A DNA stretch of 32,000 nucleotides from Candidatus Brocadia sp. (GTDB lineage Bacteria; Planctomycetota; Brocadiia; Brocadiales; Brocadiaceae): contig SOEU01000011.1 of NCBI GenBank assembly GCA_021646415.1, positions 73,385-105,384 on the forward strand, given 5' to 3'. The notes beneath the pieces were generated by a model. The model made no database searches, had not been told where the DNA came from, and saw only the letters and a program-made list of their open reading frames with translations. Shown here piece by piece: positions 8,571 through 30,027 of the stretch. Every line of letters starts with the position of its first letter. Position 1 is the stretch's first letter. Both the position numbers and the translations under genes were made by a program.

Positions 8571-9026
8571 ATGATGCTTTTTGAGGAAATCCGATCTCTT
8601 CTTCCTCAAAAATATCCTTTTTTATTTATAGATAAAGCTATTGAGTTTGAAGAAGGAAAAAGAATTGTTTGTGTAAAAAATGTCTCAGGTAATGAACCAG
8701 TCTTTGTCGGACATTTCCCTGACTTTGCCATTATGCCCGGGGTTTTAATCATCGAGGCAATGGCACAGGCTTCTATCGTCCTGTTCAAGAAGAGCCTTCC
8801 CCCAAAAAATGACAGGGATACGGTTTTTTTATTGGCATCAGTAAATAACGCTCGGTTTACAAAACCCGTCTTTCCTGGCGACCAACTCTTCATAGAAATC
8901 ATTGTAGAAAAAATTGTGTCTAAGGGAGCTATTGTTCAAGCTGCAGTAACGGCTGATGAAAAAGCGGTTGCTAAGGCAACGCTGACTTTTGGAATTGCAG
9001 ATAAAAGCGCATTAATATCGAGTTGA
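8571..9026 (+). CDS. fabZ: 3-hydroxyacyl-ACP dehydratase FabZ
   Basis: [17 protein letters not shown]...[26 protein letters not shown] has the hot-dog-fold FabZ signature, with the catalytic His (GHFP) and Glu (IIEAMAQ) present. Confidence 0.9.
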
Positions 9027-9039
9027 TAAAATTATATTT

Positions 9040-10266
9040 ATGAATAAACGTGTGGTTATAACAGGCGTAGGTATGATCACCCCTATCGGATCGGGAAAGG
9101 ACACATTCTGGAGTGCCCTAATTACTGGGGTATCTGGTGTTGATGATGTGACGTGTATTGACACTTCCGGATATAAGGTACATAAAGGATGCGAAGTAAA
9201 AAACTTCAAGTATTCCGATTATATAAAAAATGGCATCCTTAAAAAAATTGGTAAAGGTTCGCAATTTGCGATTGCGGCAACAAAGCTTGCTCTGGATGAT
9301 GCCAAGCTTAACATCCGTGCCGTTGACTTAGAAAGGCTTGGAGTTTCTGTTGGAACTACTGCGGGAGAAATACAAATCCTGGAAAAAGTCAATTATATAC
9401 GACACAAAGAGGGAGAAGATAAAGTAGACCCCGATTTGTTTCTCATGCATCCATGTAATAATATTCCTGCTAACATTGCCATTGAGTTTGGTTTCAAAGG
9501 TCCCAATACTATTATTCCCACAGCGTGCGCAGCGGGTAATTATGCAATTGGGTATGCTTATGATTTGATTAAGTTCGGACGGGTGGCTATGATGGTTGCT
9601 GGCGGTTCAGACCCTTTTTCGAAAGTTGCCTATACAGGATTTGCCAGATTGGGCGCCATCGCTCCAGAGATATGTCAACCATTTGACAAAAACAGAAAAG
9701 GCATGATGGTTGGTGAAGGCGCAGGCATGCTTCTCTTAGAATCACTTGATCATGCGATGGAGAGGAATGCAAATATTTATGCCGAAATCATTGGTTACGG
9801 CCTTAGCTGTGACGCCTATCATATAACTATCCCTCATCCCGATGGGGAAGGCGTTATCTCCGCTATGAAAAAAGCCTTAAAATGCGCAAATCTAAAACCA
9901 GAAGACGTCCAGTATGTCAGTGCCCATGGAACAGGAACTCCTGCTAATGACAAAGCCGAAACGATCTCTATTAAAAAGGTATTTGGGGATAAACCTGAGC
10001 ATCTCGCAATTAGTTCAATAAAATCAATGATTGGTCATACCATGGGTGCTGCCAGTGCAATAGAAGCCATTACCTGTGCATTGGTTGTCCAAAACGATAT
10101 CATTCCCCCGACGATTAATTATGAAACACCGGATCCTGAATGTGATCTGGATTATGTACCTAATGTAGCAAGAAAACAAAAGGTAAATATCGCACTGAAT
10201 AACGCTCATGCATTTGGTGGCAATAATAGCTGTTTAGTCGTTAAAAAATTTACAGGCAGAACGTGA
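9040..10266 (+). CDS. fabF: Beta-ketoacyl-ACP synthase II (FabF-type), catalytic triad intact
   Basis: [15 protein letters not shown]; active-site Cys in [11 protein letters not shown]; His in [14 protein letters not shown]; His in [13 protein letters not shown]; C-terminal [14 protein letters not shown]. Confidence 0.92.
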
Positions 10267-10319
10267 AAAAACAAACAGTTCTCCGGAACTGAATTAGGCG
10301 CCTATAACAGAGGTTTGTA

Positions 10320-11561
10320 ATGGAAAAAACGAGGATAGTTGTTACCGGTGTTTCGGTTATTTCATCCATTGGAAGTAATAAGGAAGTTTTTTGGAATAAT
10401 TTAACCAATGGTGTATCAGGCATTAAACCCATTACCTTGTTTGATGTAAGTAAATTTCATAGTAAACAAGCCGGTGAGATTTCTGATTTTGACGCAAAGG
10501 TCTACCTTGGCCAAAAGGGAATCCGCCATATTGATAGGACATCCCTTCTTGTATCATCTGCGACGGTTCTTGCCATTAAGGATGCCAATTTAGAGAATAA
10601 TACCTACAGTGGTGATGAATTAGGTATTGTCGTTGGTTCTACGTATGGCAGTATTGATAGTATCAGTTCTTTCGATTTCCAGTCTTTGCGTGAAGGTCCT
10701 AATTATGTGAATCCCATGGATTTTCCTAATACCGTGCTGAATGCACCAGCAAGCCGTGCCTCTATTTTTTGTAAGGCAACAGGGCTGAATACAACCATTT
10801 CAAATGGTGTAACAAGCAGCATCGATGCGATTATTTATGCCTCTGATTTCCTTCGGATGGGTCGGGTAAAGGCTGTAGTTGCCGGAGGCGTGCATGGATT
10901 AACTCATGACATCTTTTGGGGAGCACATAATTCTAAAATATTATCGGGAAGTAAGGATGGGACTCAGGAAATTTGTGCACCCTTTGACAAAAGACGCAAT
11001 GGGATGGTCATTGGTGAAGCATCGGCATTAGTCATCCTCGAAACCTTAGAAGATGCGCTCCGGAGAAATGCACATATTTATGCAGAAATCAAGGGTTACG
11101 GAACCGCATTTGACCCTGAAATGGCTGTTAGCAGGGATTATCAGATAGACGGCAACAAAAGGGCTATCATGGGTGCCATTCATGATGCCAGTCTGACGTT
11201 GAATGATATTTCTTACATATCTGCCAATGCTTATTCTGGTGTTTATGGCGATGCAATGGAAACCAGAGTTATTAAAGAAGTCTTCGGCATGAGAGCAAAT
11301 CTTATTCCTGTTACCGCAATAAAATCTATGACAGGTGAATGTTATGATGCCTCGGGAGCATTGCAGACAATAGCCGCAGCAATGTCCATGAACACACACA
11401 CAGTTCCACCGACAATTAACCTTAAGGAACGTGACCCTGAGTGTGATTTAGATTATGTTGCCAATATCGCCAGGGTCTTACCAGTCAAAAATGTCCTAAT
11501 CAACACCTTTTCACGATTGGGAAATAATTCGGCCTTAATTATCTCCAAATACAAGCAGTAA
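10320..11561 (+). CDS. Ketosynthase paralog lacking the Cys-His-His triad (chain-length-factor/KS-beta-like)
   Basis: Full-length thiolase-fold KS similarity to the upstream FabF (TRIVVTGVSVISSIG..., [34 protein letters not shown]). In ungapped local alignment [11 protein letters not shown] aligns with SNGVTSSIDAI (Cys to Val), SAHGTGTP with SANAYSGV (His to Asn) and [11 protein letters not shown] with KSMTGECYDAS (His to Glu). Confidence 0.85.
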   Translation: MEKTRIVVTGVSVISSIGSNKEVFWNNLTNGVSGIKPITLFDVSKFHSKQAGEISDFDAKVYLGQKGIRHIDRTSLLVSSATVLAIKDANLENNTYSGDELGIVVGSTYGSIDSISSFDFQSLREGPNYVNPMDFPNTVLNAPASRASIFCKATGLNTTISNGVTSSIDAIIYASDFLRMGRVKAVVAGGVHGLTHDIFWGAHNSKILSGSKDGTQEICAPFDKRRNGMVIGEASALVILETLEDALRRNAHIYAEIKGYGTAFDPEMAVSRDYQIDGNKRAIMGAIHDASLTLNDISYISANAYSGVYGDAMETRVIKEVFGMRANLIPVTAIKSMTGECYDASGALQTIAAAMSMNTHTVPPTINLKERDPECDLDYVANIARVLPVKNVLINTFSRLGNNSALIISKYKQ

Positions 11562-11564
11562 TTC

Positions 11565-13025
11565 ATGATATCTTCCAACCGGTGCATTCAATCCACTAAA
11601 AAGGATAGTCTTTATCCTTCTTATGATGCAATTGTGATTGGTGCAGGTATTGCTGGTCTGGTTTGCGGTGCATTCCTCGCCAGGATCGGGAAAAAGGTAC
11701 TCATTGTGGAGCAGCATTCCATCCCTGGCGGTTATTGCACTTCATTTAAAAGGAAAGGTTTCAATTTCGATGCGGCAGTTCACCATATTGGGGGTTGTGG
11801 AAAATGGGGTATTGTAGGGCGTTGCCTTAAAATTCTGGAGATAGAGCTGGATTTTTATCCTCTCGATCCAATGGACCATTTGATTTTCCCCAACCTTACC
11901 ATAGAAATTCCAGCCGATTTGGACGAATATATCATACGTTTACAGGGTCGCTACCCATCGGAAAAGGATAGCGTCAAGCATTTCTTTCAGGATTTTTTAA
12001 AGCTCTATCGCGCTACATTCAATAATGAGAAAAGCCAAATTATAGATAAATATAAAAATCAGACGTATATTGAAATGTTGAATGCTTTTTTGAAAAATGA
12101 CGAGCTCAAGATGATACTTTCTGGTCAATGGGGTTATATAGGGCTCCCCCCTACCCAAGCTTCTGCTATAGGCATGTGCCAGATGATGATCAATTATCTC
12201 AAAGACGGCGCCTTTTTTCCTGCGGGTGGTACGCAAGAGTTTGCTAATGCAATTTTTAAGAAATTTATTGATTTTGGTGGGCATATTATGCTATCATCCA
12301 AAGCCGAAAAAATTTTATGTACCGGCAAAACCGCCGTTGGTGTAAAATTGCAGGAAGGGAAAGAGATATCCTCGGACGTTGTTGTTTCAAACATTGATGC
12401 CCGGCAGACCTTTTTCGGATTATTAGAAGGTAAATCAGATACACCATTCCTTCAAAGAATTAGAGAAATGAAGGAAAGTTGTTCCTTTTGCCTTTTATAC
12501 TTGGGAGTAGGTGAAGGCATAGATTTAAGTGAATTAAAAAGAGGATTTTATCATACTGCCACAGATGCAAGATATGTAAATGACGAGTGGATGTATGTGT
12601 CGGTTCCAACGAAGATAAGCCCTGCACTTGCCCCGCCAAACAAGCAGATAATCTCTGCGGTTGTTTACATGGAGAAAGAAAAATATAATGATATTACTGA
12701 TTGGAAATCTTTTAAAGAAAGTATGATATCAGGTACAATAAATCGACTGGAAGAATACGTCCCTGATATAAAAAAACATATCGAAGTAAAAGATGCGGCT
12801 ACCCCGAAAACTCTGGAGCGGTACACGTTAAATACCAATGGAGCCGCTTACGGCTGGGAGGTCAGTGTGGATCAAATATGGGATAATAGACTTCCCCATC
12901 AGACGCCGATTGATAATCTGTATTTGACTGGTCATTGGACAAGGCCTGGTCCTGGAATTTGTGCTGTTGTTTCTTCTGGATGGGGTGTAGCAAATTTAAT
13001 TATGGAGAAGGAGAATTGGAGGTAA
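11565..13025 (+). CDS. Phytoene-desaturase-family (CrtI-like) FAD-dependent oxidoreductase
   Basis: N-terminal dinucleotide-binding fold YDAIVIGAGIAGLVCGAFLARIGKKVLIVEQHSIPGGYCTSF. About 486 aa, with the C-terminal LYLTGHWTRPGPGI motif typical of CrtI/amine-oxidase-fold enzymes. It starts 3 nt after the KS-like stop. Confidence 0.85.
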   Translation: MISSNRCIQSTKKDSLYPSYDAIVIGAGIAGLVCGAFLARIGKKVLIVEQHSIPGGYCTSFKRKGFNFDAAVHHIGGCGKWGIVGRCLKILEIELDFYPLDPMDHLIFPNLTIEIPADLDEYIIRLQGRYPSEKDSVKHFFQDFLKLYRATFNNEKSQIIDKYKNQTYIEMLNAFLKNDELKMILSGQWGYIGLPPTQASAIGMCQMMINYLKDGAFFPAGGTQEFANAIFKKFIDFGGHIMLSSKAEKILCTGKTAVGVKLQEGKEISSDVVVSNIDARQTFFGLLEGKSDTPFLQRIREMKESCSFCLLYLGVGEGIDLSELKRGFYHTATDARYVNDEWMYVSVPTKISPALAPPNKQIISAVVYMEKEKYNDITDWKSFKESMISGTINRLEEYVPDIKKHIEVKDAATPKTLERYTLNTNGAAYGWEVSVDQIWDNRLPHQTPIDNLYLTGHWTRPGPGICAVVSSGWGVANLIMEKENWR

Positions 13026-13029
13026 ATTT

Positions 13030-14490
13030 ATGAAAAGAAAAATGATGTTGATTAACCCACACAAGCCGGGTAGGCATGGCGAAGAGAGTATTACCGTAAT
13101 CGTCCAGATGCCTTTGAATCTTGCTTATGTTGCCGCCCTTACGCCAGGCGATTGGGAATTTGACGTTATTGACGAAAATCTCGAATTGGCAATAGATGAT
13201 AACGGTGAAATTACCTTTAAACCCGTAGATCTTGTGTGTATAACAGCAGTTACCTATCAATCTCCCAGGGCCTACACGATTGCTACTGCCTGTAGGAAAA
13301 AGGGTATGACCGTAATCATGGGTGGAATACATGCGTCTGTAATGCCTGAGGAAGCCATAAAGTACGTCGATGCTGTTTTTGTGGGTGAGGCAGAGGAAGT
13401 ATGGCCACAGGTAATCAAAGATTTTGAAGACGGAAAGCTCAAGAAGATTTATCAGGGAGGATTGCCTCCCCTCAGCCTGATGAAAAAGGTATATCCTAAT
13501 CGGGAGCTCATGAAGAAAAAATATGACTATAAATTTTCTTCCATTGTCACAACGAAGGGATGCCCGAACTATTGCGATTTCTGCAGCGTCCCCACATTCC
13601 AGGGAAGAAAATTCAGGGAGAGACCTTATGAAGATGTTCTCGCAGAGATGGCCGCAACAGATTATAAGGGTTTGATGCTGGCAGAGGATAATTTTTACGG
13701 TCATGGGAAAAAGTCAAACGAGAGGGCACGGGATCTTTTTAAGGGCATGGTGGAGCGCGGCATCCACAAAGATTGGCTAGGATTTACTGCTTTAAATATT
13801 TCTCAGGATCCTGAGACATTAAATTATATGGCAAAGAGTGGCTGCTTTGGTATGCTTATCGGTATCGAATCTACCAATGAGGCCGTTTTACAGAAGATGA
13901 ATAAGCGGGTAAACCTTAAGCTGGGTACAGATAGTTACTTTGATTGTATCCAAAAGATACACGATGCCGGCCTGGTTGTTTGGGGATCAGTAGTGTTTGG
14001 AGCCGATGGAGATGATAAAGACTCCTTTAAAAGAATGACTGAGTTCATATTGGAAAATAATATTGATATTCTTACCTTTGGTATTAACTGCCCATTCCCC
14101 AAGACTCAACTTTATGCCAGACTGGATTCAGAAAAGAGGATCTTCAGGAAAAATTATCCAGAAGATTGGCAATACTATGATACTGCTCATGTGGTTCATC
14201 GTTTCGTAGACATGACGTTAGAAGGCTTTATCGAAGGTATGCAATATGTTTATGATCATGTTTACGCAGGTGATAACCTAAGAACACGTTTCAGAAATTC
14301 TATTAAGACAACGAAAAATCCGAGAAATTCCATGTTTGCATTCAGGGTAGGTTCTGACTGGAAACAGGTCTTTGAACAGGTCTTGCAGAATTTAAAAGAG
14401 TTGTATGACTCAGGTGATTATTATAAAGATTATTACAAATCAAGTGCGGTACCTGTTTCAAAACCCATAATGGAAGCAGTTACTACATAA
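13030..14490 (+). CDS. B12-binding-domain radical SAM enzyme (class B)
   Basis: N-terminal Rossmann-like cobalamin-domain pattern (LNLAYVAALTP...VCITAVTYQSPRAYTIATACRKKGMTVIMGGIHAS...VFVGEAE). Radical SAM cluster motif TKGCPNYCDFCSV (CxxxCxxC). GGAGG RBS 7 nt upstream. It starts 4 nt after the oxidoreductase stop. Confidence 0.9.
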   Translation: MKRKMMLINPHKPGRHGEESITVIVQMPLNLAYVAALTPGDWEFDVIDENLELAIDDNGEITFKPVDLVCITAVTYQSPRAYTIATACRKKGMTVIMGGIHASVMPEEAIKYVDAVFVGEAEEVWPQVIKDFEDGKLKKIYQGGLPPLSLMKKVYPNRELMKKKYDYKFSSIVTTKGCPNYCDFCSVPTFQGRKFRERPYEDVLAEMAATDYKGLMLAEDNFYGHGKKSNERARDLFKGMVERGIHKDWLGFTALNISQDPETLNYMAKSGCFGMLIGIESTNEAVLQKMNKRVNLKLGTDSYFDCIQKIHDAGLVVWGSVVFGADGDDKDSFKRMTEFILENNIDILTFGINCPFPKTQLYARLDSEKRIFRKNYPEDWQYYDTAHVVHRFVDMTLEGFIEGMQYVYDHVYAGDNLRTRFRNSIKTTKNPRNSMFAFRVGSDWKQVFEQVLQNLKELYDSGDYYKDYYKSSAVPVSKPIMEAVTT

Positions 14491-19299: not shown

Positions 19300-19773
19300 C
19301 TACACTACCATCCCAATAATGACTCCTTCAAATACGAGTTTTCCATTTACCACACCTTGAGTATCAAAGACGGCCCTGCGTGAACGCAATTCCTTGTTTT
19401 TTGCAATGAGAATAAGTTTGTCGCCAGGGATAACTTTTCCACGGAATTTTACTTTATCGATACCACCAAAGCCAAGGAAGCGGTCGTCCTGTGTGGTTTT
19501 TTTGTAATAATAGGTACATAACTGTGCGGCCGCTTCAAGCATAATTACCCCAGGCATCAGGGGACGGCCAGGAATGTGTCCCTGCACCCAAAATTCACTA
19601 TTCGAAATGTCTTTATAACCTATTATAATTTTATTTTCAGGATCAAATTTTATAATGCCGCTCAATTGTTCCATCTCATATCGGTGCGGTATGACGGCAC
19701 GAATAGCCTCGATACCCACTGTCGGTTTATTTAAATCCAAATTGTTTAAATCAGTTAAAATGTCCTGTGGCAT
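19300..19773 (-). CDS. Second FabZ/FabA-like 3-hydroxyacyl-ACP dehydratase
   Basis: IPHRYEMEQL...SEFWVQGHIPGRPLMPGVIMLEAAAQ has the catalytic His and Glu positions conserved. The ORF-track start at 19818 is GTG; I prefer the ATG at 19773 (MPQDILTDL...), but the start is uncertain. Confidence 0.85.
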   Translation of the reverse strand: MPQDILTDLNNLDLNKPTVGIEAIRAVIPHRYEMEQLSGIIKFDPENKIIIGYKDISNSEFWVQGHIPGRPLMPGVIMLEAAAQLCTYYYKKTTQDDRFLGFGGIDKVKFRGKVIPGDKLILIAKNKELRSRRAVFDTQGVVNGKLVFEGVIIGMVV

Positions 19774-19911
19774 ATGATACACGAGAAAATTATTTGTAAA
19801 AACCGGCAAATAAAGCACACTATTTTGTTTGATTCAAAATATTAATAATGATTCGTTATCGTGTCAATGAAAATCTCATAGAGCAAGAAAAACATTCAGC
19901 AAAAAATATAA

Positions 19912-19940
19912 TTGACAACTACAATATATTTTGATATAAA
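19912..19940 (+). promoter_or_regulatory. Near-consensus sigma70-type promoter for the Cys-rich micro-ORFs
   Basis: TTGACA (19912-19917), exactly 17 nt spacer, TATAAA (19935-19940). Confidence 0.55.
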
Positions 19941-20026
19941 ACTTAACAGTGTCTGTTTTGGAGAAAAATTCTTGGTGGCCTCGTGGGTAGCATTTAGTTT
20001 TTTGCAATGTTTGCAACAAGGAGGTG

Positions 20027-20203
20027 ATGCTAGTGAAAAAATTATATGTTTCACTTATGGTATTTGGTACGCTAACGTTTGGAATCGGCTTAGTAAATGT
20101 ACCGACTCTTATAAAATCAGTAATTGCTGGTACATGCCAGTGCTCGGAAGGTTGCCCGTGCGGTCATTGTTTAAACAAAGCCAAGGATTGTTGTTGCAAA
20201 TAA
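20027..20203 (+). CDS. Micro-ORF A: exported cysteine-dense peptide (58 aa from ATG 20027, 56 aa from GTG 20033)
   Basis: AAGGAGG at 20018-20024. Product is (ML)VKKLYVSLMVFGTLTFGIGLVNVPTLIKSVIAGTCQCSEGCPCGHCLNKAKDCCCK: a hydrophobic leader followed by 8 Cys in the last 24 residues. Absent from the ORF track. Confidence 0.5.
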   Translation: MLVKKLYVSLMVFGTLTFGIGLVNVPTLIKSVIAGTCQCSEGCPCGHCLNKAKDCCCK

Positions 20204-20256
20204 TTAAGTACCGTACACAAGCTCATTACCTTAAATGATCCGAAAGGAGATTGAAA

Positions 20257-20418
20257 ATGTTAAAGAAGATTGGTATTACGATGGCTTTTGTGGGTGCATT
20301 AATGATCGGTGCATGTGTCACTACAATTTACGCTGCGCCTTGTGGTTGCCCAGAAGATATAAAGTGTAAAGAGGGTTGTGAAAAGGGGAAAACGGATCCT
20401 TGTATTTGTAAACACTAA
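20257..20418 (+). CDS. Micro-ORF B: exported cysteine-dense peptide (53 aa)
   Basis: AAAGGAGA (20243-20250) lies 6 nt before the ATG. Product is MLKKIGITMAFVGALMIGACVTTIYAAPCGCPEDIKCKEGCEKGKTDPCICKH: a classic signal peptide (K-K, hydrophobic core, IYA|AP) followed by 6 Cys in 27 residues. Absent from the ORF track. Confidence 0.55.
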   Translation: MLKKIGITMAFVGALMIGACVTTIYAAPCGCPEDIKCKEGCEKGKTDPCICKH

Positions 20419-20455
20419 GAATCCTAAAATTTTTAATTTAATGGTTTTATAACTC

Positions 20456-20493
20456 AAAAAGCGCCTTATATGATAAGGCGCTTTTTGATTTTC
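20456..20493 (+). terminator. Intrinsic terminator after micro-ORF B, 22 nt before rplM
   Basis: Stem AAAAAGCGCCTTA (20456-20468) / TAAGGCGCTTTTT (20474-20486), 5-nt loop, then GATTTTC. The T-run is part of the 3' arm. Confidence 0.7.
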
Positions 20494-20515
20494 ATCGTTT
20501 AAGGAATACAATGCA

Positions 20516-20950
20516 ATGAATACTTTTATGGCAAAAAAAGAGAATGTGAAAAGAAATTGGTACATAGTAGACGCCAACGATAAAATATTGGGGCGAATGT
20601 TAACCACAGTTTCCAGGGTTCTTCAAGGTAAGCATAAACCTGAATATACGCCTCACGTTGACGTAGGGGATTTTGTTATTATTACCAATGCGAGTAAGGT
20701 AAAGCTTACTGGGAAAAAGATGCAGGAGAAGGTTCACTATTATGTCACTGGTTTTCAAAGTGGTCTGCGAAAACGAATGGTTGGGAAAACCTTGGAAACT
20801 GCGCCAGAAAAGATACTTAGCCGATCAGTAAGAAGAATGTTGCCCAGATCGAGGCTGGGAAAGGATATGTTGAGAAAATTAAAGATTTATGCAGGTGCAG
20901 AGCATCCGCATCAGGCACAACAACCCAAAGAGTTGGTTATTCGTAATTAA
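20516..20950 (+). CDS. rplM: 50S ribosomal protein L13
   Basis: KRNWYIVDANDKILGRMLTTVSRVLQGKHKPEYTPHVDVGDFVIITNASKVKLTGKK is the L13 signature. Confidence 0.95.
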   Translation: MNTFMAKKENVKRNWYIVDANDKILGRMLTTVSRVLQGKHKPEYTPHVDVGDFVIITNASKVKLTGKKMQEKVHYYVTGFQSGLRKRMVGKTLETAPEKILSRSVRRMLPRSRLGKDMLRKLKIYAGAEHPHQAQQPKELVIRN

Positions 20951-20965: not shown

Positions 20966-21361
20966 GTGGCAGAAGAACAATATATATGGGGTACAGGCAG
21001 GCGTAAATCATCTATTGCAAGGGTAAGAATAAAAAAGGGATTGGGGAAAATCCTGGTCAATAATAAGGATCTGGACACTTACTTTCCTATAGACCGGGAG
21101 AGAGGTATGGTACAGGTTCCCCTGAAGACCACGAAAACATTAGGGGAATTTGACGTATTGATAACCGTACAGGGAGGAGGTTTAACCGGACAGGCAGGTG
21201 CAATATCCCTTGGCATTGCACGTGCGCTTTCCAAATCGGACCCTTCCTTTATTGATAGTTTGCGTGAGGGTGGTTTCTTAACAAGAGACAGCAGAATGAA
21301 AGAACGGAAAAAATATGGCAAAAAGGGAGCAAGAAAGAGCTTCCAGTGGACAAAACGATAA
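20966..21361 (+). CDS. rpsI: 30S ribosomal protein S9
   Basis: GTG start with AAGGAGG at 20954-20960. GTGRRKSSIARVRI...GGGLTGQAGAISLGIARAL...GFLTRDSRMKERKKYGKKGARKSFQWTKR is the S9 signature. Confidence 0.95.
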   Translation: MAEEQYIWGTGRRKSSIARVRIKKGLGKILVNNKDLDTYFPIDRERGMVQVPLKTTKTLGEFDVLITVQGGGLTGQAGAISLGIARALSKSDPSFIDSLREGGFLTRDSRMKERKKYGKKGARKSFQWTKR

Positions 21362-22154: not shown

Positions 22155-22880
22155 CTAGTAACTCCAATTCTCGTGGCGCAAAGGACTTTTATTCAACTCC
22201 TCTTTGTAAAATCTCCACTTTAGCAAATACGTATCCATGTAGGCGATAAATCTTTCATTATGATGACGTTCTAACAGATGCACCATTTCATGCACAATGA
22301 TATATTCAATACATTCTTTTGATTTTTTGGCCAGTTCAAGATTTAACCAGATCCTTTTTGCCTCTCTGTTACACGTACCCCATTTCGTCTTCATCTTTTT
22401 TATGGCATACTCAACACCGTCCAGTCTCATCTTTTTCTTCCAACAAGCAATATATTCGGGAACAATTTCCTTCAGTTTCTGGCGATACCATTCTTCCAAA
22501 ACAACCCGTTTTTTTTCTATGCTTGCGCCAGGTCTTACATACAATTCAAGAACGCTGTGCTTTAATATAACTTTTGGAGCAGCGTTATGCTCAAAAACTT
22601 TCAGCAGGTATCGCTTGCCCAGATAGTAATGACTTTCCTGTGTTAAAAATTCCCTTGGGGTTTCTCGTTCCTGACTGAGCAGTTTTTGCTGCTGTTTCTT
22701 TATCCAACTTAATTTTGATAGAGCGAAAACCCTAATAGTTTCAAGGTCCATGCGTAAGGGAGCGGAAATTCTTACCCTCCCTATTGGCGGATAAACACCC
22801 AGATGAATATTCTTAATATCCTTTTGAATTACATCAATAGGTAAATTACTCAATTGGATTTGCTGCATATCAATACTCAT
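22155..22880 (-). CDS. YgjP-like/DUF45 zinc metallopeptidase (M48-like), the usual type I R-M companion
   Basis: C-terminal HExxH in IIVHEMVHLLERHHNERF, preceded by KWGTCN. It overlaps the hsdR stop by 11 nt. Confidence 0.8.
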   Translation of the reverse strand: MSIDMQQIQLSNLPIDVIQKDIKNIHLGVYPPIGRVRISAPLRMDLETIRVFALSKLSWIKKQQQKLLSQERETPREFLTQESHYYLGKRYLLKVFEHNAAPKVILKHSVLELYVRPGASIEKKRVVLEEWYRQKLKEIVPEYIACWKKKMRLDGVEYAIKKMKTKWGTCNREAKRIWLNLELAKKSKECIEYIIVHEMVHLLERHHNERFIAYMDTYLLKWRFYKEELNKSPLRHENWSY

Positions 22881-25800
22881 TCTGCTGTTTTATGATCGGA
22901 AAAATACGCTCAACTTCATTGGCATCCTTTAAAATATCATAAAGCGCTTTTTTAATTTCTCTTTCCTTAGCATCATTACCACGCCAGTCAGCCTTCTTTA
23001 CATATCTGACGGCTTCATCCATTACAACGGCCAATTCCTCATCGTGATTGAGGTTGTTGTATAATGCCCGTCTGGCGTTACTGTTTTTTATACTTGCCGG
23101 CAAATTATCTCTTGCGGGATTATTTACCTTCTTTGCCAATTCAGCGATCTTCTTTAAATATGCTTCATAATTGATGGCATTTGTCTTTCTCTCTTTAACA
23201 ATTTCATGTAAAAGCTTTGACATTTCTTCAAAGTAAGCAGGGTCTATCAAATGCTCCTGTATGATTTTCTTCCGCACGTTGTTTTCAATAGTTTCCGCCA
23301 CTGCTTCTTTATTGCGTTTAATCCCTTCGGGCAAACTGTTGATGGCATCAGCAATGCCGGAATTAACGAGTAAATCCAGCAACGACATATTCGCAAAAGG
23401 AGAAATTGTCCTGGGTTCCTCCGCCTGTATGTAAGTGTCAATTAAATGCCGCATATCAGCTTCGTAGGTCTTCATATCGAGCGTTTCGCCGCTGGCATTC
23501 CTGATCTCTTCCCTGAGTTTCAAATAATAATCCACTTTCTTTTTGATATCTGCAATCTCTGCCTGGGTATAGCCTGCTTCTTCCATTTCCGCCGCGATAT
23601 TGGCATAAGCCCTTATGAGTGCCACCGTTTGTTTATAAAGAGACGTTCTCTTTACCTCATTGGACTTCAGGTCTTCTTCGTTTTCCGGATCACCACAGAA
23701 GTAGCGGATGTACGCCAGTGAGTCTTTTGGCGGCGCTACCGGTTCGCATAATAAGGCCATTTCTTCCAAGGCATTATCCAGCCGTTCCCTGCCTTTCTCC
23801 AGGCGGTCTTTTAATAACACATCCACGTCCCCTTTCTCAAACGTATCATAATCCAGTTCCGACGTGTACACAGCAACGGCATTTTCAACCTTTCTGAACA
23901 GGTCTTTATAATCAACAATGTAACCAAACTCCTTGTCATCGCTGTCCAGCCGGTTGACCCTGCAAATAGCCTGGAATAAGCCATGATCCTGCATGCTTTT
24001 GTCGATATAGAGATAGGTGCAGGGTGGCGCATCAAAACCGGTAAGGAGTTTATCAACCACGACAAGCAGTTTCATATTTGACGGCTCTTTTATAAACTTT
24101 TCCTTCGCCTCATCTTCGTATTTCTCGGTGGGCTTGTTTCCCAGCAACGATTTATAGATGTTATAGATATATTCCTTTTCCGTCTCTGTATTTGCGCCGG
24201 TATCTTCCGTTGTTATATCCCTTGTTGATGGATTGTATGAGGTAACAATGGCGCATTTGCCTTTCAACTCGGTAGTTTGAAACAGTTCAAAATACCTGCA
24301 TGCTTCATAAATACTTGATGCCACCAGAATGGCATTTCCCCTGTCCGAGTTCAAACGCGGTTTTACATTAAAATCAAACACGATGTCGCTTACGATCTTT
24401 TCCAGTCTGGAACGGGAACTCAGCACCTTCTGCATCGTACCCCATTTCTTCTTGAGCTCAGATTTTTGAAAGTCGTTCAAACCACGGGTCTTGGCTTCAA
24501 ACCATTCATCTATCTTTTGAGATGATGATATTTTCTGGTCGATATCACGGGCTTCGTACACCAAATCAAGCACCACTTCATCCGCAACCGCCTCGTTGAA
24601 CTTATAGGTATGAATGTATTTACCAAATACCTCAAGACTGGTTTGCTTATCTTGTTTTAAGAGTGGGGTTCCGGTAAAGCCAATAAAGATGGCATTTTTT
24701 AAAATTGCCTTCATCGTTTTGTGCAGCTTGCCCGATTGGGTACGGTGACACTCATCTACAAAGATAAATAATTCACCAACGGTATGGATGGGACTCCTTT
24801 TTAATTCTTCAATGAATGCATCAAAATTATCGACTCCCTTCCTGCCAAATTTATGCACCAGCGAACACAGCATGCGGGGCAATGCCTTGCCCAGTTGGTC
24901 CATCAGGTCTTTACCATTGCGGGTACGCACCATGCTTTCCCCAACATCGGTAAATATGCGTTCTATCTGTTTATCCAACTCGTCACGGTCGGTAATAATT
25001 ACCACGCGTGCATGGGGGTTGTTTTCAAGAATCCATTTGGCAAGCCACACCATTACCAGGCTTTTACCGCTGCCCTGCGTATGCCAGATAATTCCACCCT
25101 CTCGCCTTTTCGCATGCTCCTGTGCGGCCTTGACGCCAAAGTATTGATGCGGACGGCACAATTTTTTCATGCCGCCGTCAAACAGGGTAAAGTCGTAGAT
25201 GATTTCAAGAAACCTTCTTTTATCGCACAGTTTTACAAGGTATTTATCGAAGAGATTTTCTCCCTCGCCTTCTTCCTTCCACGTCAGAAAATATTTTTCA
25301 GGTGTCCCAATAGTACCATAGCGGAGCCCCTGGGTATCATTCCCGGCAAACACCCATTGAATGGTGGTAAAGAAGGACTGGATGAATTCTTTCTGCTGGT
25401 TGACAATATTCTGCCGGATACCGTCGCCTATGGAAATCGTGCTTCGTTTCAGTTCCAGCACCCCAAGTGCTACGCCGTTTACGTAGAGCACAATATCAGG
25501 GCGTTTTTCGTGATTGCCCCGGATAGTAACCTCTTCGGCAATGGCAAATTCGTTTTCAAGCGGGTGCTTCCAGTCAATAAGTTCAACGGTCTCATAGTTT
25601 TCACCGGCTTCTGCCTTGACTTTTACGCCGTAACGCAGCAGTTGATATACCTTTTTATTGGCGCTGTATAGACCATCGTTCAGGTTATTAGCCGCCTTGC
25701 CGAGTTCATATAAGGCTTTGTTGATAAGGGTATTATTGTAGCGTTTTCTCTCACGTAAATATTTACGAAGGATTGCTTCTTCAATATTGCTGTTGTTCTG

Positions 25801-25902
25801 GCGGTCTTCCCAATTGCCCAGGTAGTTATAGCCCAATTCTTTATGGAACAAGGCAATTATCCTGTTTTGGGTTTCACGTTCTTTTTTGCCGATGTTGCTC
25901 AT
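22870..25902 (-). CDS. hsdR: Type I restriction enzyme, R (endonuclease/translocase) subunit
   Basis: PD-(D/E)xK nuclease region RPDIVLYVNGVALGVLELKRS. SF2 helicase motif I HTQGSGKSLVMV, motif II (DEAH-type) FVDECHRTQ, later motifs TGTPL and QAICRVNR. 1010 aa. Confidence 0.95.
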   Translation of the reverse strand: MSNIGKKERETQNRIIALFHKELGYNYLGNWEDRQNNSNIEEAILRKYLRERKRYNNTLINKALYELGKAANNLNDGLYSANKKVYQLLRYGVKVKAEAGENYETVELIDWKHPLENEFAIAEEVTIRGNHEKRPDIVLYVNGVALGVLELKRSTISIGDGIRQNIVNQQKEFIQSFFTTIQWVFAGNDTQGLRYGTIGTPEKYFLTWKEEGEGENLFDKYLVKLCDKRRFLEIIYDFTLFDGGMKKLCRPHQYFGVKAAQEHAKRREGGIIWHTQGSGKSLVMVWLAKWILENNPHARVVIITDRDELDKQIERIFTDVGESMVRTRNGKDLMDQLGKALPRMLCSLVHKFGRKGVDNFDAFIEELKRSPIHTVGELFIFVDECHRTQSGKLHKTMKAILKNAIFIGFTGTPLLKQDKQTSLEVFGKYIHTYKFNEAVADEVVLDLVYEARDIDQKISSSQKIDEWFEAKTRGLNDFQKSELKKKWGTMQKVLSSRSRLEKIVSDIVFDFNVKPRLNSDRGNAILVASSIYEACRYFELFQTTELKGKCAIVTSYNPSTRDITTEDTGANTETEKEYIYNIYKSLLGNKPTEKYEDEAKEKFIKEPSNMKLLVVVDKLLTGFDAPPCTYLYIDKSMQDHGLFQAICRVNRLDSDDKEFGYIVDYKDLFRKVENAVAVYTSELDYDTFEKGDVDVLLKDRLEKGRERLDNALEEMALLCEPVAPPKDSLAYIRYFCGDPENEEDLKSNEVKRTSLYKQTVALIRAYANIAAEMEEAGYTQAEIADIKKKVDYYLKLREEIRNASGETLDMKTYEADMRHLIDTYIQAEEPRTISPFANMSLLDLLVNSGIADAINSLPEGIKRNKEAVAETIENNVRKKIIQEHLIDPAYFEEMSKLLHEIVKERKTNAINYEAYLKKIAELAKKVNNPARDNLPASIKNSNARRALYNNLNHDEELAVVMDEAVRYVKKADWRGNDAKEREIKKALYDILKDANEVERIFPIIKQQNEY

Positions 25903-26465
25903 GGTATTTCCTGTTTAAAGAATGTATCTTTTTCCCATTTTTCGGGATTGGTTCTGATATAATTTGCAATTCGGTGGTATTCATCCTCGTCGCGGATGAT
26001 GTGGTCATGAAAACGGGATTGCCACACAGGTATTTTGGGCGTATTACGAAATTCGTTGATGCGTTTGGTTGCAGATGATTTGAATCCCCCCCCAAATGAT
26101 GAAATGGATCGGATCGAACGATGGGCAATTCCCGTGTTCGTGGGCGTTTGTAGAGACGCACGGCCGTGCGTCTGTACGGATGTGGTTGGGTCGGAATTTT
26201 CAATTCGCACAATGGCGTGCAGATGGTTGGGCATCAATACAAATGCATCGCAAAATAATTCCGCCCGAATTTGAAACGATTGTTCCCATTCCCGCAAAAC
26301 GATTTCGCCCATGGGCGATGGTTGCATTTGTCCGTCGCGAATTTTGCCAAAGACACATTCATGATGTGCGGTACAAATGGTGATGAAATAACACCCGCGC
26401 CATGAATAATCCCACCACGGCGCCCGTGCCGATGGTATGCGGTATCTATTTTTGAATTTTTCCAT
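25899..26465 (-). CDS. IS200/RAYT-like Y1 HUH transposase-family protein embedded in the R-M operon
   Basis: YFITICT, HUH motif in FVLMPNHLHAIVRI, and WQSRFHDHIIRDEDEYHRIANYIRTNPEKW (catalytic-Tyr helix). The start codon shares nt 26465 with the hsdS stop, and its stop overlaps the hsdR ATG (ATGA, 25899-25902). Confidence 0.8.
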   Translation of the reverse strand: MEKFKNRYRIPSARAPWWDYSWRGCYFITICTAHHECVFGKIRDGQMQPSPMGEIVLREWEQSFQIRAELFCDAFVLMPNHLHAIVRIENSDPTTSVQTHGRASLQTPTNTGIAHRSIRSISSFGGGFKSSATKRINEFRNTPKIPVWQSRFHDHIIRDEDEYHRIANYIRTNPEKWEKDTFFKQEIP

Positions 26466-27622
26466 TATACCAACCTGATTTTCCCGGTTAATAAATTCTG
26501 CATCATCCCCTGTTTTATCATTTTGTATTTCTCCAACTTCTTTTCCAGGGCTTCTATTTCGGCATCCATATCGTAAAGAATTTGGGCAATAAGGGTTTGT
26601 TCCTCTTTTGTTGGAGGAAATAGCAATTCTATTTTTTCAATTGACTTAGCATTTAAACTCGGAACTCCAGAAGCTTCATTGTGAGAATACCAATCAATCA
26701 AATTGAATTTATAGAAAATGAATTTTGGAAAAGCGTTGTCCATAATTTCTGTATAGAAGATTGTATCAATTGCCCAAAATGGTGTGTCCATGTATTGAGG
26801 AACATCAATTGTTCCTTTTCTACCAATTAAAACTGATGGCTTGTTGTATATAAATGTTCTTGTTCTCCCAACAACGCCACTAGTTGCCAAAATTGGAAAT
26901 TCACCATTTTCATCAACAATTTCTTTTTGACTTTTTCCATGTCTGACTTTTAAAACTTCTCCCAATTTCTTCACTTCCCACATCCCGTTAAACCCCGGCA
27001 GGCGTTTTTTGCCGGTAAGGAGTTGTTGCATAGCCCCTTGTTTGATGTTCCGCTTTTTGGCAATGAGCTTTTCTAATTGGGTAATGAGTGCATCGGCATC
27101 ACTTAATACAGCAGCAATGGCGGTTTGTTCGGCTTTGGTGGGGGGAGTAGCGATTTTAAAATTTGATATCGCGGTAGTATCAAGAAAGGGTTGGGCTGCG
27201 CCCACGAACCATGCTTTTTGTTGTTTGGCGACATATTCAGATTGCAAAGAATAAAGTAAATATTCTTTAAACTGATTTTTATAAACTCTGATTCTTGGAG
27301 CATTATAGCTGTGTGGCAAGCCAATCCAAGCGTTTTTAGGAATATATGATGCTCCTGCTGATGCACCTGTTCCAGCAAATAGCACATCTTGTTCGTTAAT
27401 TGCATACCTCATTATCTCATCAGTTGGTGATACAAATACTGGATTGTCTTCGAAGAAATCATTGATCCTGATTAACCTTATTCCATTACTGTTTACATAC
27501 CTAATATATTGTGATCCAGCGCCTCGTTTTACTTCTCCAAATTGAGAAACTGCTTGAACATTCCAATCCTCTGGAATTATACCTACCTCAGTTTTTTTGT
27601 AACCTTTTTTTACTATCTCCAT
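26465..27622 (-). CDS. hsdS: Type I R-M specificity subunit (two TRDs)
   Basis: Two copies of the conserved spacer region: PPTKAEQTAIAAVLSDADALITQLEKLIAKKRNIKQGAMQQLLTGKKRL and PPTKEEQTLIAQILYDMDAEIEALEKKLEKYKMIKQGMMQNLLTGKIRL. Each follows a variable target-recognition domain. Confidence 0.92.
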   Translation of the reverse strand: MEIVKKGYKKTEVGIIPEDWNVQAVSQFGEVKRGAGSQYIRYVNSNGIRLIRINDFFEDNPVFVSPTDEIMRYAINEQDVLFAGTGASAGASYIPKNAWIGLPHSYNAPRIRVYKNQFKEYLLYSLQSEYVAKQQKAWFVGAAQPFLDTTAISNFKIATPPTKAEQTAIAAVLSDADALITQLEKLIAKKRNIKQGAMQQLLTGKKRLPGFNGMWEVKKLGEVLKVRHGKSQKEIVDENGEFPILATSGVVGRTRTFIYNKPSVLIGRKGTIDVPQYMDTPFWAIDTIFYTEIMDNAFPKFIFYKFNLIDWYSHNEASGVPSLNAKSIEKIELLFPPTKEEQTLIAQILYDMDAEIEALEKKLEKYKMIKQGMMQNLLTGKIRLV

Positions 27623-30027
27623 ACCAACCCCATTTTCTTCAGGTGCCCGTGTACCTTTTTCTCTAATGCATCCACTTCGGCAGTAATAGCAGGCAATGGA
27701 GCTTCATAGCGTTCTGCCAGTTCTTTAATGCGTCCCGTAAGCCGCTGACTGATACGCTCCATCTCTGTTCTGATATCTCTTTCCAGTGTGGCCATCCATT
27801 TATCTTCCACCATTAGAATTTTTATTTCGGCTTCGGTAAGGGCTTTGTATTTTTCCAAGACCTTTTTCTTCAGAGCAGCCTGCGCATCTTTTATTTTCTT
27901 GCTGACTTCTGCTTCCTGTTTTGTCAGTTTCAAACAATCCTGCAACACTTTTCTCTCATCTGCCGATTCCTTTTCGTTTTGTATCTCTTTAAGGCGATCC
28001 TTCACACTTGTTTTGGTAATCTTATCCTTATCATTTTTGGCATCTGCCATTAGCCCTTCTTCCCCGCCGTGTTCTTCTTCCAACTCCTCCATTTGCCTGA
28101 CAATCGCATCGCGGTCGGCCTCTAAATTTTCAATGGCCTTTTGCTCTGTCACAAAATAGCGGGCAATGATAAGCCCTTTGGGTATGAGGCGTCCTTCCCA
28201 TTGTTTTTTATCTCTTTCTATTTCCTTTCCTGCTTCCCACCCATCGCTTACCAAAGCATACACGTCATCCTGTATGGTTTCAGACCAGTAAATCATGAGA
28301 TGCTGGTAGACATCATATTTGTCGATCAGCTTTAAGCTGGAAAAGGCTTGCAATAAATCTTCCGATATTTCGTGTATCAGTTTTTTGGGTTTATCACCAA
28401 CGGCAATGCCTTTCAGTTTTGGCATGTTTTTGGCTTTCCATTGGCTAAATACGGTATCTACTTTTTTGCTGTAAGCAGTAAACTCCGGGTGAGAAAAAAT
28501 GGCGGGTTTTACGGCATCATGGGCAATAAGCAGCTTGCTGTAATTGACACGGTTTCCCGTCGTGAATAATGTTTTTCTCAGGGCTGGATAAACGTCCCAA
28601 TACGGGTGCAAGGCGTCAATATCGTCATTGGGTATATCGCCCAGCAAATGCGCCTCGATATCCTGAATGTCCTCGGCATCCTGGCTATCAATGTAGCGGG
28701 GAATGTTCAGGTTAAACTCATTGGCCTCGATCTCCGTTACCGGCACCATGCGGCTGTATTTTTCCATTTCCAGATGTTTGTTGAATACATCTACTATCTT
28801 GTGTATATCCTGTTCACGCAGGCGGTTTTTGTTGCCGTCTTTCTCAAAACCCCTGCTGGCATCAATCATAAAAATGCCTTTGCGGTGTTCGGCGCCTTCC
28901 TTATCCAGCACAATAATGCAGGCGGGAATGCCGGTGCCGTAAAACAGGTTGGGAGGCAGGCTGATGATGCCTTTCATGTATCCCCTGCGAATGATATTTT
29001 TCCGGATTTCCCCTTCGACATTTCCGCGAAACAATACCCCGTGCGGAAGGATCACGGCGCCCTTGCCTTTGCTTTTTAAGGAACGGATGATGTGCAAAAG
29101 AAAGGCATAGTCTCCATTTTTCTTCGGGGGTATACCGTAATCTTTGAAACGATCGTGGATATCGGATATGGTTCCCTCCTGAACGGCAAAACCGCTGCTC
29201 CACGCCTTGTATGAGAAGGGAGGATTTGCCACCACAAAGTCAAAGGTTTTGAGCCTGCCTCTTTCGTCCAGAAACAACGGATCGGAAAGGGTACTTTGTC
29301 CTTTCCTGATCTCTGCGGTAGGGTTGTTGTGCAAAATCATATTCATTCTTGCCAACGCCGCCGTTGCCACCTCTTTTTCCTGGCCGTAGATGGACATGCC
29401 CGACTCGGATTCATCAGCCACTTTGAGGAGTAATGACCCTGAGCCGCACGTGGGGTCATACACCGTTGTTGAGGGATTTGTTTTCGAGTGAAAGGTGATG
29501 ATCTTAGCCATAACACGGCTTACCTCGGCAGGGGTATAGAATTGTCCTTTGCTCTTCCCACTCTCAGTGGCAAAGTGCCGCATCAGGTATTCGTAAGCAT
29601 CGCCAAGGATATCATCCCCTTCTGCCCTGTTTTTACTGAAATCGAGCGCCGGGTTTTCAAAAATGGCGATGAGATTGGAGAGGCGGTCAACCATCTCTTT
29701 GCCGCTGCCCAGTTTATCGGCGCTGTTGAAGTCGGCGACATCGATAGTGCCGGTAAGTTTGTTGGCTTCGGCAATTTTCCCGATGATTTTTTTGTTAATG
29801 TCATCGCCAATAGTGGGCTTACCTTTAAGGGCAACCATGTCTTTAAAGCTGGCGCCTTTGGGCACAGTAATGGGCGCATAGGGCACTCCGGCATATTTGT
29901 CAGAGATGTATTTGATGAACAAAAGTACCAGCACATAGTCTTTGTATTGAGAGGCATCCATACCTCCGCGGAGTTCGTCACAACTCGCCCAGAGTGAACT
30001 GTACAGTTCAGATTTTTTTATGGCCAT
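27613..30027 (-). CDS. hsdM: Type I R-M N6-adenine DNA methyltransferase subunit, long form (804 aa)
   Basis: HsdM N-domain LWASCDELRGGMDASQYKDYVLVLLFIKYISDKY. SAM motif I DPTCGSGSLLL and catalytic motif IV VANPPFS. About 320 additional C-terminal residues rich in charged heptad-like sequence. Confidence 0.95.
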   Translation of the reverse strand: MAIKKSELYSSLWASCDELRGGMDASQYKDYVLVLLFIKYISDKYAGVPYAPITVPKGASFKDMVALKGKPTIGDDINKKIIGKIAEANKLTGTIDVADFNSADKLGSGKEMVDRLSNLIAIFENPALDFSKNRAEGDDILGDAYEYLMRHFATESGKSKGQFYTPAEVSRVMAKIITFHSKTNPSTTVYDPTCGSGSLLLKVADESESGMSIYGQEKEVATAALARMNMILHNNPTAEIRKGQSTLSDPLFLDERGRLKTFDFVVANPPFSYKAWSSGFAVQEGTISDIHDRFKDYGIPPKKNGDYAFLLHIIRSLKSKGKGAVILPHGVLFRGNVEGEIRKNIIRRGYMKGIISLPPNLFYGTGIPACIIVLDKEGAEHRKGIFMIDASRGFEKDGNKNRLREQDIHKIVDVFNKHLEMEKYSRMVPVTEIEANEFNLNIPRYIDSQDAEDIQDIEAHLLGDIPNDDIDALHPYWDVYPALRKTLFTTGNRVNYSKLLIAHDAVKPAIFSHPEFTAYSKKVDTVFSQWKAKNMPKLKGIAVGDKPKKLIHEISEDLLQAFSSLKLIDKYDVYQHLMIYWSETIQDDVYALVSDGWEAGKEIERDKKQWEGRLIPKGLIIARYFVTEQKAIENLEADRDAIVRQMEELEEEHGGEEGLMADAKNDKDKITKTSVKDRLKEIQNEKESADERKVLQDCLKLTKQEAEVSKKIKDAQAALKKKVLEKYKALTEAEIKILMVEDKWMATLERDIRTEMERISQRLTGRIKELAERYEAPLPAITAEVDALEKKVHGHLKKMGLVWR

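Follow-up and report, generated by a model that had tools for sequence, protein, structure and literature searches.

Two conserved micro-genes upstream of rplM-rpsI in anammox Brocadiaceae, and the possible role of their cysteine-rich products as exported, metallothionein-like peptides

Two tandem micro-genes, here called pep1 and pep2, were found directly upstream of the ribosomal protein genes rplM-rpsI in a 32,000-nt stretch of DNA from a Candidatus Brocadia sp. (contig SOEU01000011.1; the whole stretch is referred to as the window, and positions follow its numbering unless a related locus is named). Conservation among related genomes leaves next to no doubt that both are genuine protein-coding genes. 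Their products, each consisting of an export-type N-terminal segment and a short, cysteine-dense domain, are tentatively read as Sec-exported, metallothionein-like metal-thiolate peptides. Anaerobic ammonium-oxidizing (anammox) bacteria account for much of the nitrogen lost globally, and wastewater plants that employ them face a practical problem in the toxicity of copper, zinc, and cadmium. They possess an internal organelle that is packed with metalloenzymes.

The case that the two open reading frames (ORFs) are more than chance occurrences is made by their conservation, and not by motif scans. The pep1 coding sequence (20033..20203, + strand) starts with GTG and encodes 56 amino acids plus a stop codon (MKKLYVSLMVFGTLTFGIGLVNVPTLIKSVIA followed by GTCQCSEGCPCGHCLNKAKDCCCK), and that of pep2 (20257..20418, + strand) starts with ATG and encodes 53 amino acids plus a stop codon (MLKKIGITMAFVGALMIGACVTTIYA followed by APCGCPEDIKCKEGCEKGKTDPCICKH). 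In the called frames, the pooled ratio of nonsynonymous to synonymous divergence (dN/dS, Nei-Gojobori) was 0.153 for pep1 and 0.161 for pep2, with dS greater than 1 and synonymous sites near saturation. Within the Cys-rich domain of pep1, the proportion of nonsynonymous differences (pN) was 0.08, compared to 0.79 for synonymous differences (pS). When the same DNA was read in the two other forward frames, pN/pS was 1.1-1.7 (1.5-1.7 for the shifted frames of pep1). Purifying selection on both peptides is strong and frame-specific. Orthologs carry an ATG at the position aligned to the GTG at 20033, and the pep1 start was therefore placed there, and not at the GTG at 20024 that opens the mechanically called ORF of 59 amino acids. 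An initial annotation of the window, made from its sequence alone, had proposed two real micro-genes and had dismissed as spurious the longer six-frame ORFs that overlap them (19912-20238, + strand; 20299-20607, − strand). Both proposals held: the frames are intact, selection is frame-specific, and the Cys columns are kept across about 20 related loci, with no broken frames and no unconserved Cys in the relatives checked, and the longer ORFs, which span 16-127 and 43-110 codons in relatives, have no conserved length.

The organization of the locus is conserved as well. A scan of GTDB species genomes yielded 18 loci, all labelled Brocadia, Brocadiaceae or Planctomycetota metagenome-assembled genomes (MAGs), and the order of a FabA-like gene (− strand), promoter, pep1 and/or pep2, GCGCCTTA-loop-TAAGGCGC-Tn, and rplM is shared by 19 loci. 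It was also found in Jettenia CY-1 and in the more divergent locus L033. Both these related loci and the genes around the unit assign the window to Candidatus Brocadia. Most loci contain both genes; pep1 was lost in L006, L008, and L014, with the promoter, pep2, and hairpin kept, and the Jettenia locus (L032) contains pep1 only. The sites of pep1 loss lie at 2880-3000 in L006, where a short remnant ORF is left, at 2870-3000 in L008, and in L014. The genes had initially been described as unannotated. They are indeed uncharacterised, but databases already list homologs under the name "hypothetical protein": UZ01_00671/00672 and GAN35284.1 from Brocadia sinica, QY310_11020 from Jettenia CY-1, and WP_164994597.1 from Kuenenia. 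For this reason, "uncharacterised" describes the genes better than "unannotated". In a Logan contig identical to the window, pep2 was called as a gene and pep1 was not called, and single-sequence searches returned one homolog cluster for pep1 and 12 clusters for pep2. Genes of the pep1 type are easily overlooked, because of their GTG start and short length.

Used as a family profile, pep1 recovered 21 database homologs. The pep2 homologs in the 12 clusters are all 53 amino acids long, except for one of 59. Profile-profile comparison of pep2 with pep1 (hhalign) gave a probability of 97.8% and an E value of 1.2e-12, and, by this measure, the two are paralogs within a single family. When the pep2 profile was run exhaustively with HMMER against 1.84 billion cluster representatives, only seven clusters were returned, which include longer variants of 59-84 amino acids with an extra CPxxCKC element. 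The source-named members are labelled Brocadia, Kuenenia, Jettenia, Brocadiaceae or Planctomycetota MAGs; none falls outside the Brocadiaceae lineage, and Scalindua is not among them. As far as seen, the family is restricted to the anammox family Brocadiaceae. The inability of the initial annotation to place the peptides in a known family was borne out by Pfam, NCBIfam, and PDB sequence searches, none of which gave a family match. Pfam hmmscan returned no family for the full peptides (E ≤ 0.1) or for the mature domains (E ≤ 10). The NCBIfam scan (E up to 10) gave only a weak, signal-peptide-like match to Phr_nterm, and no match to metallothioneins, to SCIFF (six cysteines in forty-five residues) or to ribosomally synthesized and post-translationally modified peptides (RiPPs). 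The PDB searches produced insignificant matches only, the best being that of pep1 to the DppA signal peptide (5f1q). Literature searches on metallothioneins, cysteine-rich proteins or copper storage proteins in anammox bacteria or Kuenenia turned up nothing on these peptides. The pep1/pep2 family is previously undescribed.

The Cys-rich domain of pep1 (20129..20200, + strand) comprises 24 residues with eight Cys and one His, and that of pep2 (20335..20415, + strand) comprises 27 residues with six Cys and one His; the mature sequences and Cys and His counts given initially are exact, and the two sequences correspond to the conserved small-x-small sites described below. The pep1 family follows the pattern C-x-C-(P)-x-G-C-P-C-x-H-C-x6-C-x-C, with seven Cys and one His. 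Seven Cys are present in 20 of the 21 homologs, and the eighth, which creates a CCC motif, occurs only in the pep1 of the window. The pep2 pattern is C-x-C-P-x4-C-x3-C-x7-C-x-C followed by KH or HK, with six Cys that are invariant in 21 loci and a His that is kept, although its position can be swapped. The domains are Lys-rich, Cys makes up 22-33% of their residues with C-x-C and CCC motifs, and aromatic residues are absent from 16 of the 21 pep1 homologs (the remaining five have one each), in agreement with the metallothionein-like composition that had been claimed. The number of Cys varies from six to eight among the paralogs, and this drift, together with the odd count conserved in pep1, is hard to fit to fixed disulfide pairs. 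AlphaFold2 (AF2) models built on the two family alignments had a mean predicted local distance difference test score (pLDDT) of 62.5 and 65.8, with a helical N-terminus and no defined fold in the Cys domains (pLDDT 55-63).

The N-terminal segments have the features of signal peptides cleaved by signal peptidase I. A positively charged n-region (MKK/MRK in pep1, MLKK in pep2) is followed by a hydrophobic stretch of about 17 residues and, ahead of the Cys-dense domain, a small-x-small site is kept: (A/V)-(I/F)-A followed by G in pep1 (before G33), and (I/T)-(F/Y)-A followed by A or G in pep2, with Ala at −1 in both. Read from the alignments, these features agree with a charged n-region, an h-region of 10-20 residues, and small residues at −3 and −1, and the Sec-type leader initially assigned to both products is thereby upheld. 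In pep1, the predicted export-type segment spans residues 1-32 (20033..20128, + strand), with a putative cleavage site read from the alignments. No twin-arginine motif was seen in the aligned N-termini of pep1 or pep2. Weak matches of the pep1 N-terminus were to genuine signal peptides, namely that of DppA (5f1q) and the Phr N-terminal model. These features make it likely that the Cys domain lies outside the cytoplasm. In the species of the window, a lipobox-like IGAC occurs in the hydrophobic core of pep2 (residues 17-20; 20305-20316). A Cys in the h-region (IGAC, ISAC or ISVC) is confined to Brocadia sensu stricto, the other lineages lacking it, and lipidation is therefore not a trait of the family; a lipoprotein assignment was rejected, since the lipobox [LVI][ASTVI][GAS]C is not conserved across lineages. 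A UniRef entry automatically names the B. sinica homolog "Lipoprotein".

Family members also occur at a distance from rplM. In Kuenenia stuttgartiensis (CP049055.1, L030), a 59-amino-acid homolog lies away from rplM and downstream of a sigma-54 activator. A sigma-54 promoter in front of this homolog was considered and rejected, the single near-match lying elsewhere and being at chance level. The homolog sits in a stress-type run of genes encoding ABM, CsbD, BON, DUF3309, and sll1863-family proteins, which also includes a 300-amino-acid PepSY-like repeat protein with predicted export. Adjoining the homolog is a gene for a predicted exported protein of 93 amino acids, K93 (L030 4590-4871), with two CEKCGHLPTKxENDCKCxCH repeats. 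Proteins of this type (L030 4590-4871; L034 3177-3443), which make up a second uncharacterised family, share the pattern C-(E/Q)-K-C-(G/K)-H-L-P-x-K-x-E-x-D-C-x-C-x-C-H, are repeatedly encoded beside pep2-like genes, and belong to no Pfam family. About 500 bp after the Kuenenia homolog, and within the same stress-type run, a 113-amino-acid DUF326 protein of the Cys-lined, four-helix-bundle copper-storage type is encoded (L030 5684-6025; PF03860, E = 7e-17). Its match to the Csp1-family copper-storage model fell short of the cut-off, and the absence of an evident export signal led to its reading as Csp3-like. The pairing of pep2-like genes with those for K93-type and PepSY-like proteins was seen again in other lineages and in metagenome contigs resembling Kuenenia; a metagenome scan for the long variants gave only 8 such Kuenenia-like contigs, most of them short. 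Another paralog, of 84 amino acids, is followed by an exported-type, His/Glu-rich protein of 106 amino acids (L027 778-1098). A similar N-terminal module, GALMFGxGxxN..LVxSAxA, is seen in pep1 (residues 1-34) and in the PepSY-like, Cys/His-rich, and His/Glu-rich exported proteins (L030 3403-4305 and 4590-4871; L027 778-1098), with a putative cleavage site at the same aligned position. A hidden Markov model built from the pep1 N-termini only matched K93 with 16.8 bits (E = 8.5e-4 in a database of 3,518 sequences), a match that is suggestive only, because hydrophobic segments readily match one another.

A mechanism can be proposed from these observations. The near-consensus, extended −10 promoter and the strong ribosome-binding sites described below would drive high expression of both genes, and some transcripts would probably continue past the terminator-like hairpin after pep2 into rplM-rpsI. 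The Sec-type segment of each product, with its charged n-region, core of about 17 residues, and small-x-small site, would carry a domain of 24-27 residues, rich in Lys and poor in aromatic residues, out of the cytoplasm and into the periplasm or the anammoxosome lumen. This domain has seven to eight Cys plus His in pep1 and six Cys plus His in pep2. In strict anaerobes such as these, the thiols would be expected to stay reduced and to form small metal-thiolate clusters with the soft ions Cu(I), Zn(II) or Cd(II), such that the peptides might act as an extracytoplasmic, metallothionein-like buffer or donor. The metal-thiolate chemistry, which we consider possible without as yet holding it to be the probable answer, is suggested by the composition, the odd and drifting Cys count, the lack of a predicted apo fold, and the neighbours in Kuenenia and other lineages. 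Thiolate-based Cu(I) storage is known from Csp3 (PMC5171941), and Csp1, which is exported by the twin-arginine translocation (Tat) pathway, stores Cu(I) on a thiolate-lined interior outside the cytosol, possibly in the intracellular compartments of methanotrophs (PMC7558416). In Kuenenia, the Sec system is predicted to serve two membranes, that of the anammoxosome and the cytoplasmic one, and a signal for sorting to the anammoxosome was searched for in 2010 and not found (PMC2881027). The sequences of pep1 and pep2 are therefore compatible with either destination. A wider proposal, that pep1/pep2, K93, and the His/Glu-rich proteins together form an anammox-specific extracytoplasmic system that buffers metals on thiolates and delivers them to the anammoxosome, whose load of metalloenzymes is very large, with the unusually conserved N-terminal module that they share as a dedicated sorting signal, is improbable.

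Several observations weigh against the metal-thiolate reading. The mature peptides have no metallothionein family match in Pfam, even at E values up to 10. The Brocadia/Jettenia locus has no metal transporter, sensor or chaperone nearby, its neighbours being the FabA-like dehydratase and ribosomal protein genes. The Csp3-like neighbour was found in one species only, and is absent from the 8 Kuenenia-like metagenome contigs. The low AF2 confidence may merely reflect tiny peptides and shallow alignments. Finally, the N-terminal segment of pep1 is long (32 residues), has a Lys in its c-region, and is unusually conserved, with G17 and N22 invariant; its length and conservation make an uncleaved membrane anchor possible.

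The two genes lie within a compact unit. A sigma-70-type promoter (19912..19940, + strand) was read in the sequence, with the −35 element TTGACA at 19912-19917, a 17-nt spacer, and the −10 element TATAAA at 19935-19940. A TG at 19932-19933, one base 5′ of the −10 element, makes this an extended −10 promoter. It is absent from the list of a consensus promoter scan, because that scan demands a T at the last −10 position. In 19 related loci, TTGACA-17-TATA(A/T)(A/T/G) precedes the peptide genes, usually with TTTTGnTATAAA, and the same holds for Jettenia. The Shine-Dalgarno sequence of pep1, GGAGGTGA (20020..20027, + strand), lies about 8 nt 5′ of the GTG start, with equivalent GGAG motifs in the orthologs, and that of pep2, AAAGGAG (20243..20249, + strand), lies 7 nt 5′ of the ATG. 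The hairpin AAAAAGCGCCTTA-loop-TAAGGCGCTTTTT plus T-run (20454..20492, + strand) follows, about 25 nt 5′ of the start codon of rplM (20516-20950, + strand; Pfam Ribosomal_L13), after which comes rpsI (20966-21361, + strand; Ribosomal_S9, taken from Pfam annotations already available for the identical Logan contig). The promoter, the two Shine-Dalgarno-led ORFs, and the hairpin with T-run are thus all at the positions initially claimed. Upstream, a gene for a FabZ/FabA-like dehydratase (19300..19818, − strand) is divergently oriented and is kept across related loci. A promoter-like TTGACA-17-TAATAT faces this gene on the minus strand (19839-19867), and the intergenic region between the FabA-like gene and pep1 therefore looks like a divergent promoter pair.

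The hairpin had been described as a textbook intrinsic terminator. In form, this is accurate: the stem (20454-20488) has 16 pairs, six of them G-C, and is followed by the T-run TTTTTGATTTT, which is the form of an intrinsic terminator. It was recovered by a consensus scan, and the centroid fold of the 112-nt region 20419-20530 consists of the hairpin alone (−22.5 kcal/mol; z = −3.7 for the stretch, compared to shuffles). What is doubtful is insulation, since the T-run ends only about 25 nt before the rplM ATG, and related loci have no well-placed, conserved promoter between the hairpin and rplM. The peptide unit is, for these reasons, probably not fully insulated from rplM-rpsI. About half of the loci have a promoter-like TTGAT(A/T)-16-TA(T/C)AAT that overlaps the T-run (11/12 matches in L003 and L015); in the others it is degenerate. 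Its −10 element ends 3-4 nt before the rplM ATG, which would imply a leaderless rplM mRNA, with the conserved AAGGA left unused. Expression of rplM-rpsI would rely either on read-through from the peptide promoter or on this odd, T-run-overlapping promoter, and the arrangement suggests that the two genes are probably fed, at least in part, by the peptide promoter. In 19-20 loci whose coding synonymous sites are saturated, the stem GCGCCTTA/TAAGGCGC hardly changes, while the loop differs from locus to locus. This invariance suggests a sequence-specific role, as an attenuator or a ribosomal-protein binding site, beyond plain termination. The hairpin was seen only at the rplM locus, and is absent beside paralogs at other loci. 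At the gathering score, Rfam has no family in the window, and a relaxed scan placed only sub-threshold small RNA models on the hairpin, with no leader or riboswitch. In one metagenome contig (L024 653-2395), a DDE transposase of an insertion sequence lies directly 3′ of the hairpin, where rplM would be expected.

Other explanations of the two genes were weighed against the metal-thiolate reading. One possibility, unlikely but deserving of some weight, is that pep1 and pep2 are exported thiol/disulfide peptides with a role other than metal handling, either as disulfide-stabilised periplasmic or secreted peptides or as sacrificial thiol buffers against reactive nitrogen or oxygen species (nitric oxide, hydroxylamine, hydrazine, O2 intrusions) in the anammox compartment. 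The export-type N-termini fit such peptides equally, the even Cys number of pep2 (six) is compatible with three disulfides, and the Kuenenia homolog lies in a general-stress cluster (CsbD, BON, DUF3309, sll1863-family). Disulfide pairing is, however, opposed by the odd Cys count of seven in 20 of the 21 pep1 homologs, by the drift between six and eight Cys among paralogs, and by the lack of a compact, knotted fold in the AF2 models. A conserved His and C-x-C/CCC spacing are features that one typically finds in metal ligands. It is rather unlikely that the products are uncleaved, single-pass membrane micro-proteins, in which an N-terminal helix anchors the Cys-rich tail and the whole serves as an accessory subunit, assembly factor or metal/redox relay of a membrane complex. 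The N-terminal segment (dN/dS 0.19-0.30) is more conserved than ordinary signal peptides, with invariant residues in both pep1 (G17, N22) and pep2 (K3, K4, G6, T8, A10), AF2 places two helices over residues 2-35 of pep1, and, in Kuenenia, mature domains with no relation to one another are preceded by a similar N-terminal module (GALMFGxGxxN..LVxSAxA). Yet the small-x-small site is kept at one aligned position throughout this set of proteins, the 300-amino-acid PepSY-like protein among them, which fits signal peptidase cleavage, and no partner complex is encoded nearby.

That the peptides are precursors of modified peptides or bacteriocins, with a leader and a Cys-rich core of the SCIFF/ranthipeptide or lanthipeptide-like kind, is very improbable. 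They are short, have a Cys-dense C-terminal core, and a B12-binding radical SAM gene is located 5.5 kb upstream in the window, but this gene is part of a separate fatty-acid-type cluster, and none of the loci has a maturase, protease or transporter gene alongside. The stable housekeeping position and the strong purifying selection across genera also speak against such precursors, and the RiPP assignment was rejected on account of the missing adjacent maturase, the hydrophobic, Sec-like leader, and the lack of a SCIFF or RiPP match in NCBIfam at E values up to 10. Even harder to credit is the proposal that the region is essentially the 5′ leader of rplM-rpsI, and that its ORFs either serve as regulatory upstream ORFs, for instance as attenuator peptides rich in Cys codons, or have no function. 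A leader would explain why the promoter/hairpin frame is constant while its content varies (pep1 and pep2, pep1 only or pep2 only), and why the hairpin and rplM are only about 25 nt apart, a stretch that lacks a well-placed, conserved promoter. Against this, the stop codon of pep2 lies 35 nt before the hairpin, which is too far for classical ribosome-position attenuation to be likely, and the Rfam scan gave no L13 leader or other match above the gathering score. Purifying selection also acts at the amino-acid level over the whole of both peptides, the export segment included, and homologs lie far from rplM in Kuenenia and other lineages. The initial annotation had itself allowed that the region might be only a 5′ leader of rplM; when this was examined, it failed on the amino-acid selection and the distant homologs, and a pure rplM leader was rejected on the same grounds.

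Elsewhere in the window, a co-directional cluster (8571-14490) encodes FabA/FabZ-like proteins, two beta-ketoacyl synthases, an amine-oxidase/phytoene-desaturase-like flavoprotein, and the B12-binding radical SAM enzyme. In its composition, the cluster resembles the sets of genes that have been proposed to make ladderane lipids in anammox bacteria. The window also contains two bactofilin genes (1826-2896), a Cas1 gene (868-1752), a gene for a eukaryotic-type (alpha) carbonic anhydrase (3377-4156), and a complete type I restriction-modification system (HsdR, HsdS, HsdM) with a YgjP-like metallopeptidase (22870-30027).

If the metal-thiolate reading is correct, pep1 and pep2 would add a new element to anammox metal or redox homeostasis, operating through exported, thiolate-rich micro-proteins, and would represent an exported counterpart to the cytosolic bacterial metallothioneins. 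They would also provide a small, easily handled cargo with which to trace the destination of Sec substrates in a bacterium that has compartments.

Compared with characterised systems, the peptides share traits with several known groups and differ from each. Like mycobacterial MymT, cyanobacterial SmtA/BmtA, and the fungal copper metallothioneins, pep1 and pep2 are very small and Lys-rich, contain 22-33% Cys in C-x-C and CC(C) arrangements with few or no aromatic residues, and have an occasional His ligand and no predicted fold in the absence of metal. The copper metallothionein of Neurospora crassa reportedly has 25 amino acids and seven Cys; mature pep1, with 24-25 amino acids and seven to eight Cys, resembles the fungal Cu(I)-type proteins in size and Cys number. 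Unlike SmtA/BmtA (Metallothio_Pro) and the other metallothionein families of Pfam, the peptides match no profile. To our knowledge, the characterised bacterial metallothioneins are all cytosolic, whereas pep1 and pep2 carry Sec-type N-termini. The copper storage proteins Csp1 and Csp3 (DUF326, PF03860; TIGR04401) also hold Cu(I) on thiolates, Csp1 is exported (by Tat), and the Kuenenia homolog has a Csp3-like gene about 500 bp away. The Csps, however, are pre-folded four-helix bundles of 110-150 amino acids that form tetramers, whereas pep1 and pep2 have domains of 24-27 residues with no helix-bundle signal and no DUF326 match. Precursors of the SCIFF/ranthipeptide type are similar in length (about 45-55 amino acids) and in their approximately six C-terminal Cys; their genes adjoin a radical SAM maturase and encode no hydrophobic, Sec-like N-terminus, whereas the opposite is true of pep1 and pep2, which also have no NCBIfam match. 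As in the L13 leader, the region lies directly upstream of rplM-rpsI and has a conserved hairpin just before the rplM ribosome-binding site, but, unlike that leader, it encodes conserved peptides, has no Rfam match, and its hairpin has the form of an intrinsic terminator. Taken together, pep1 and pep2 resemble metallothioneins in their probable mode of working and, by the comparisons made here, belong to no known metallothionein, Csp, SCIFF or lipoprotein family.

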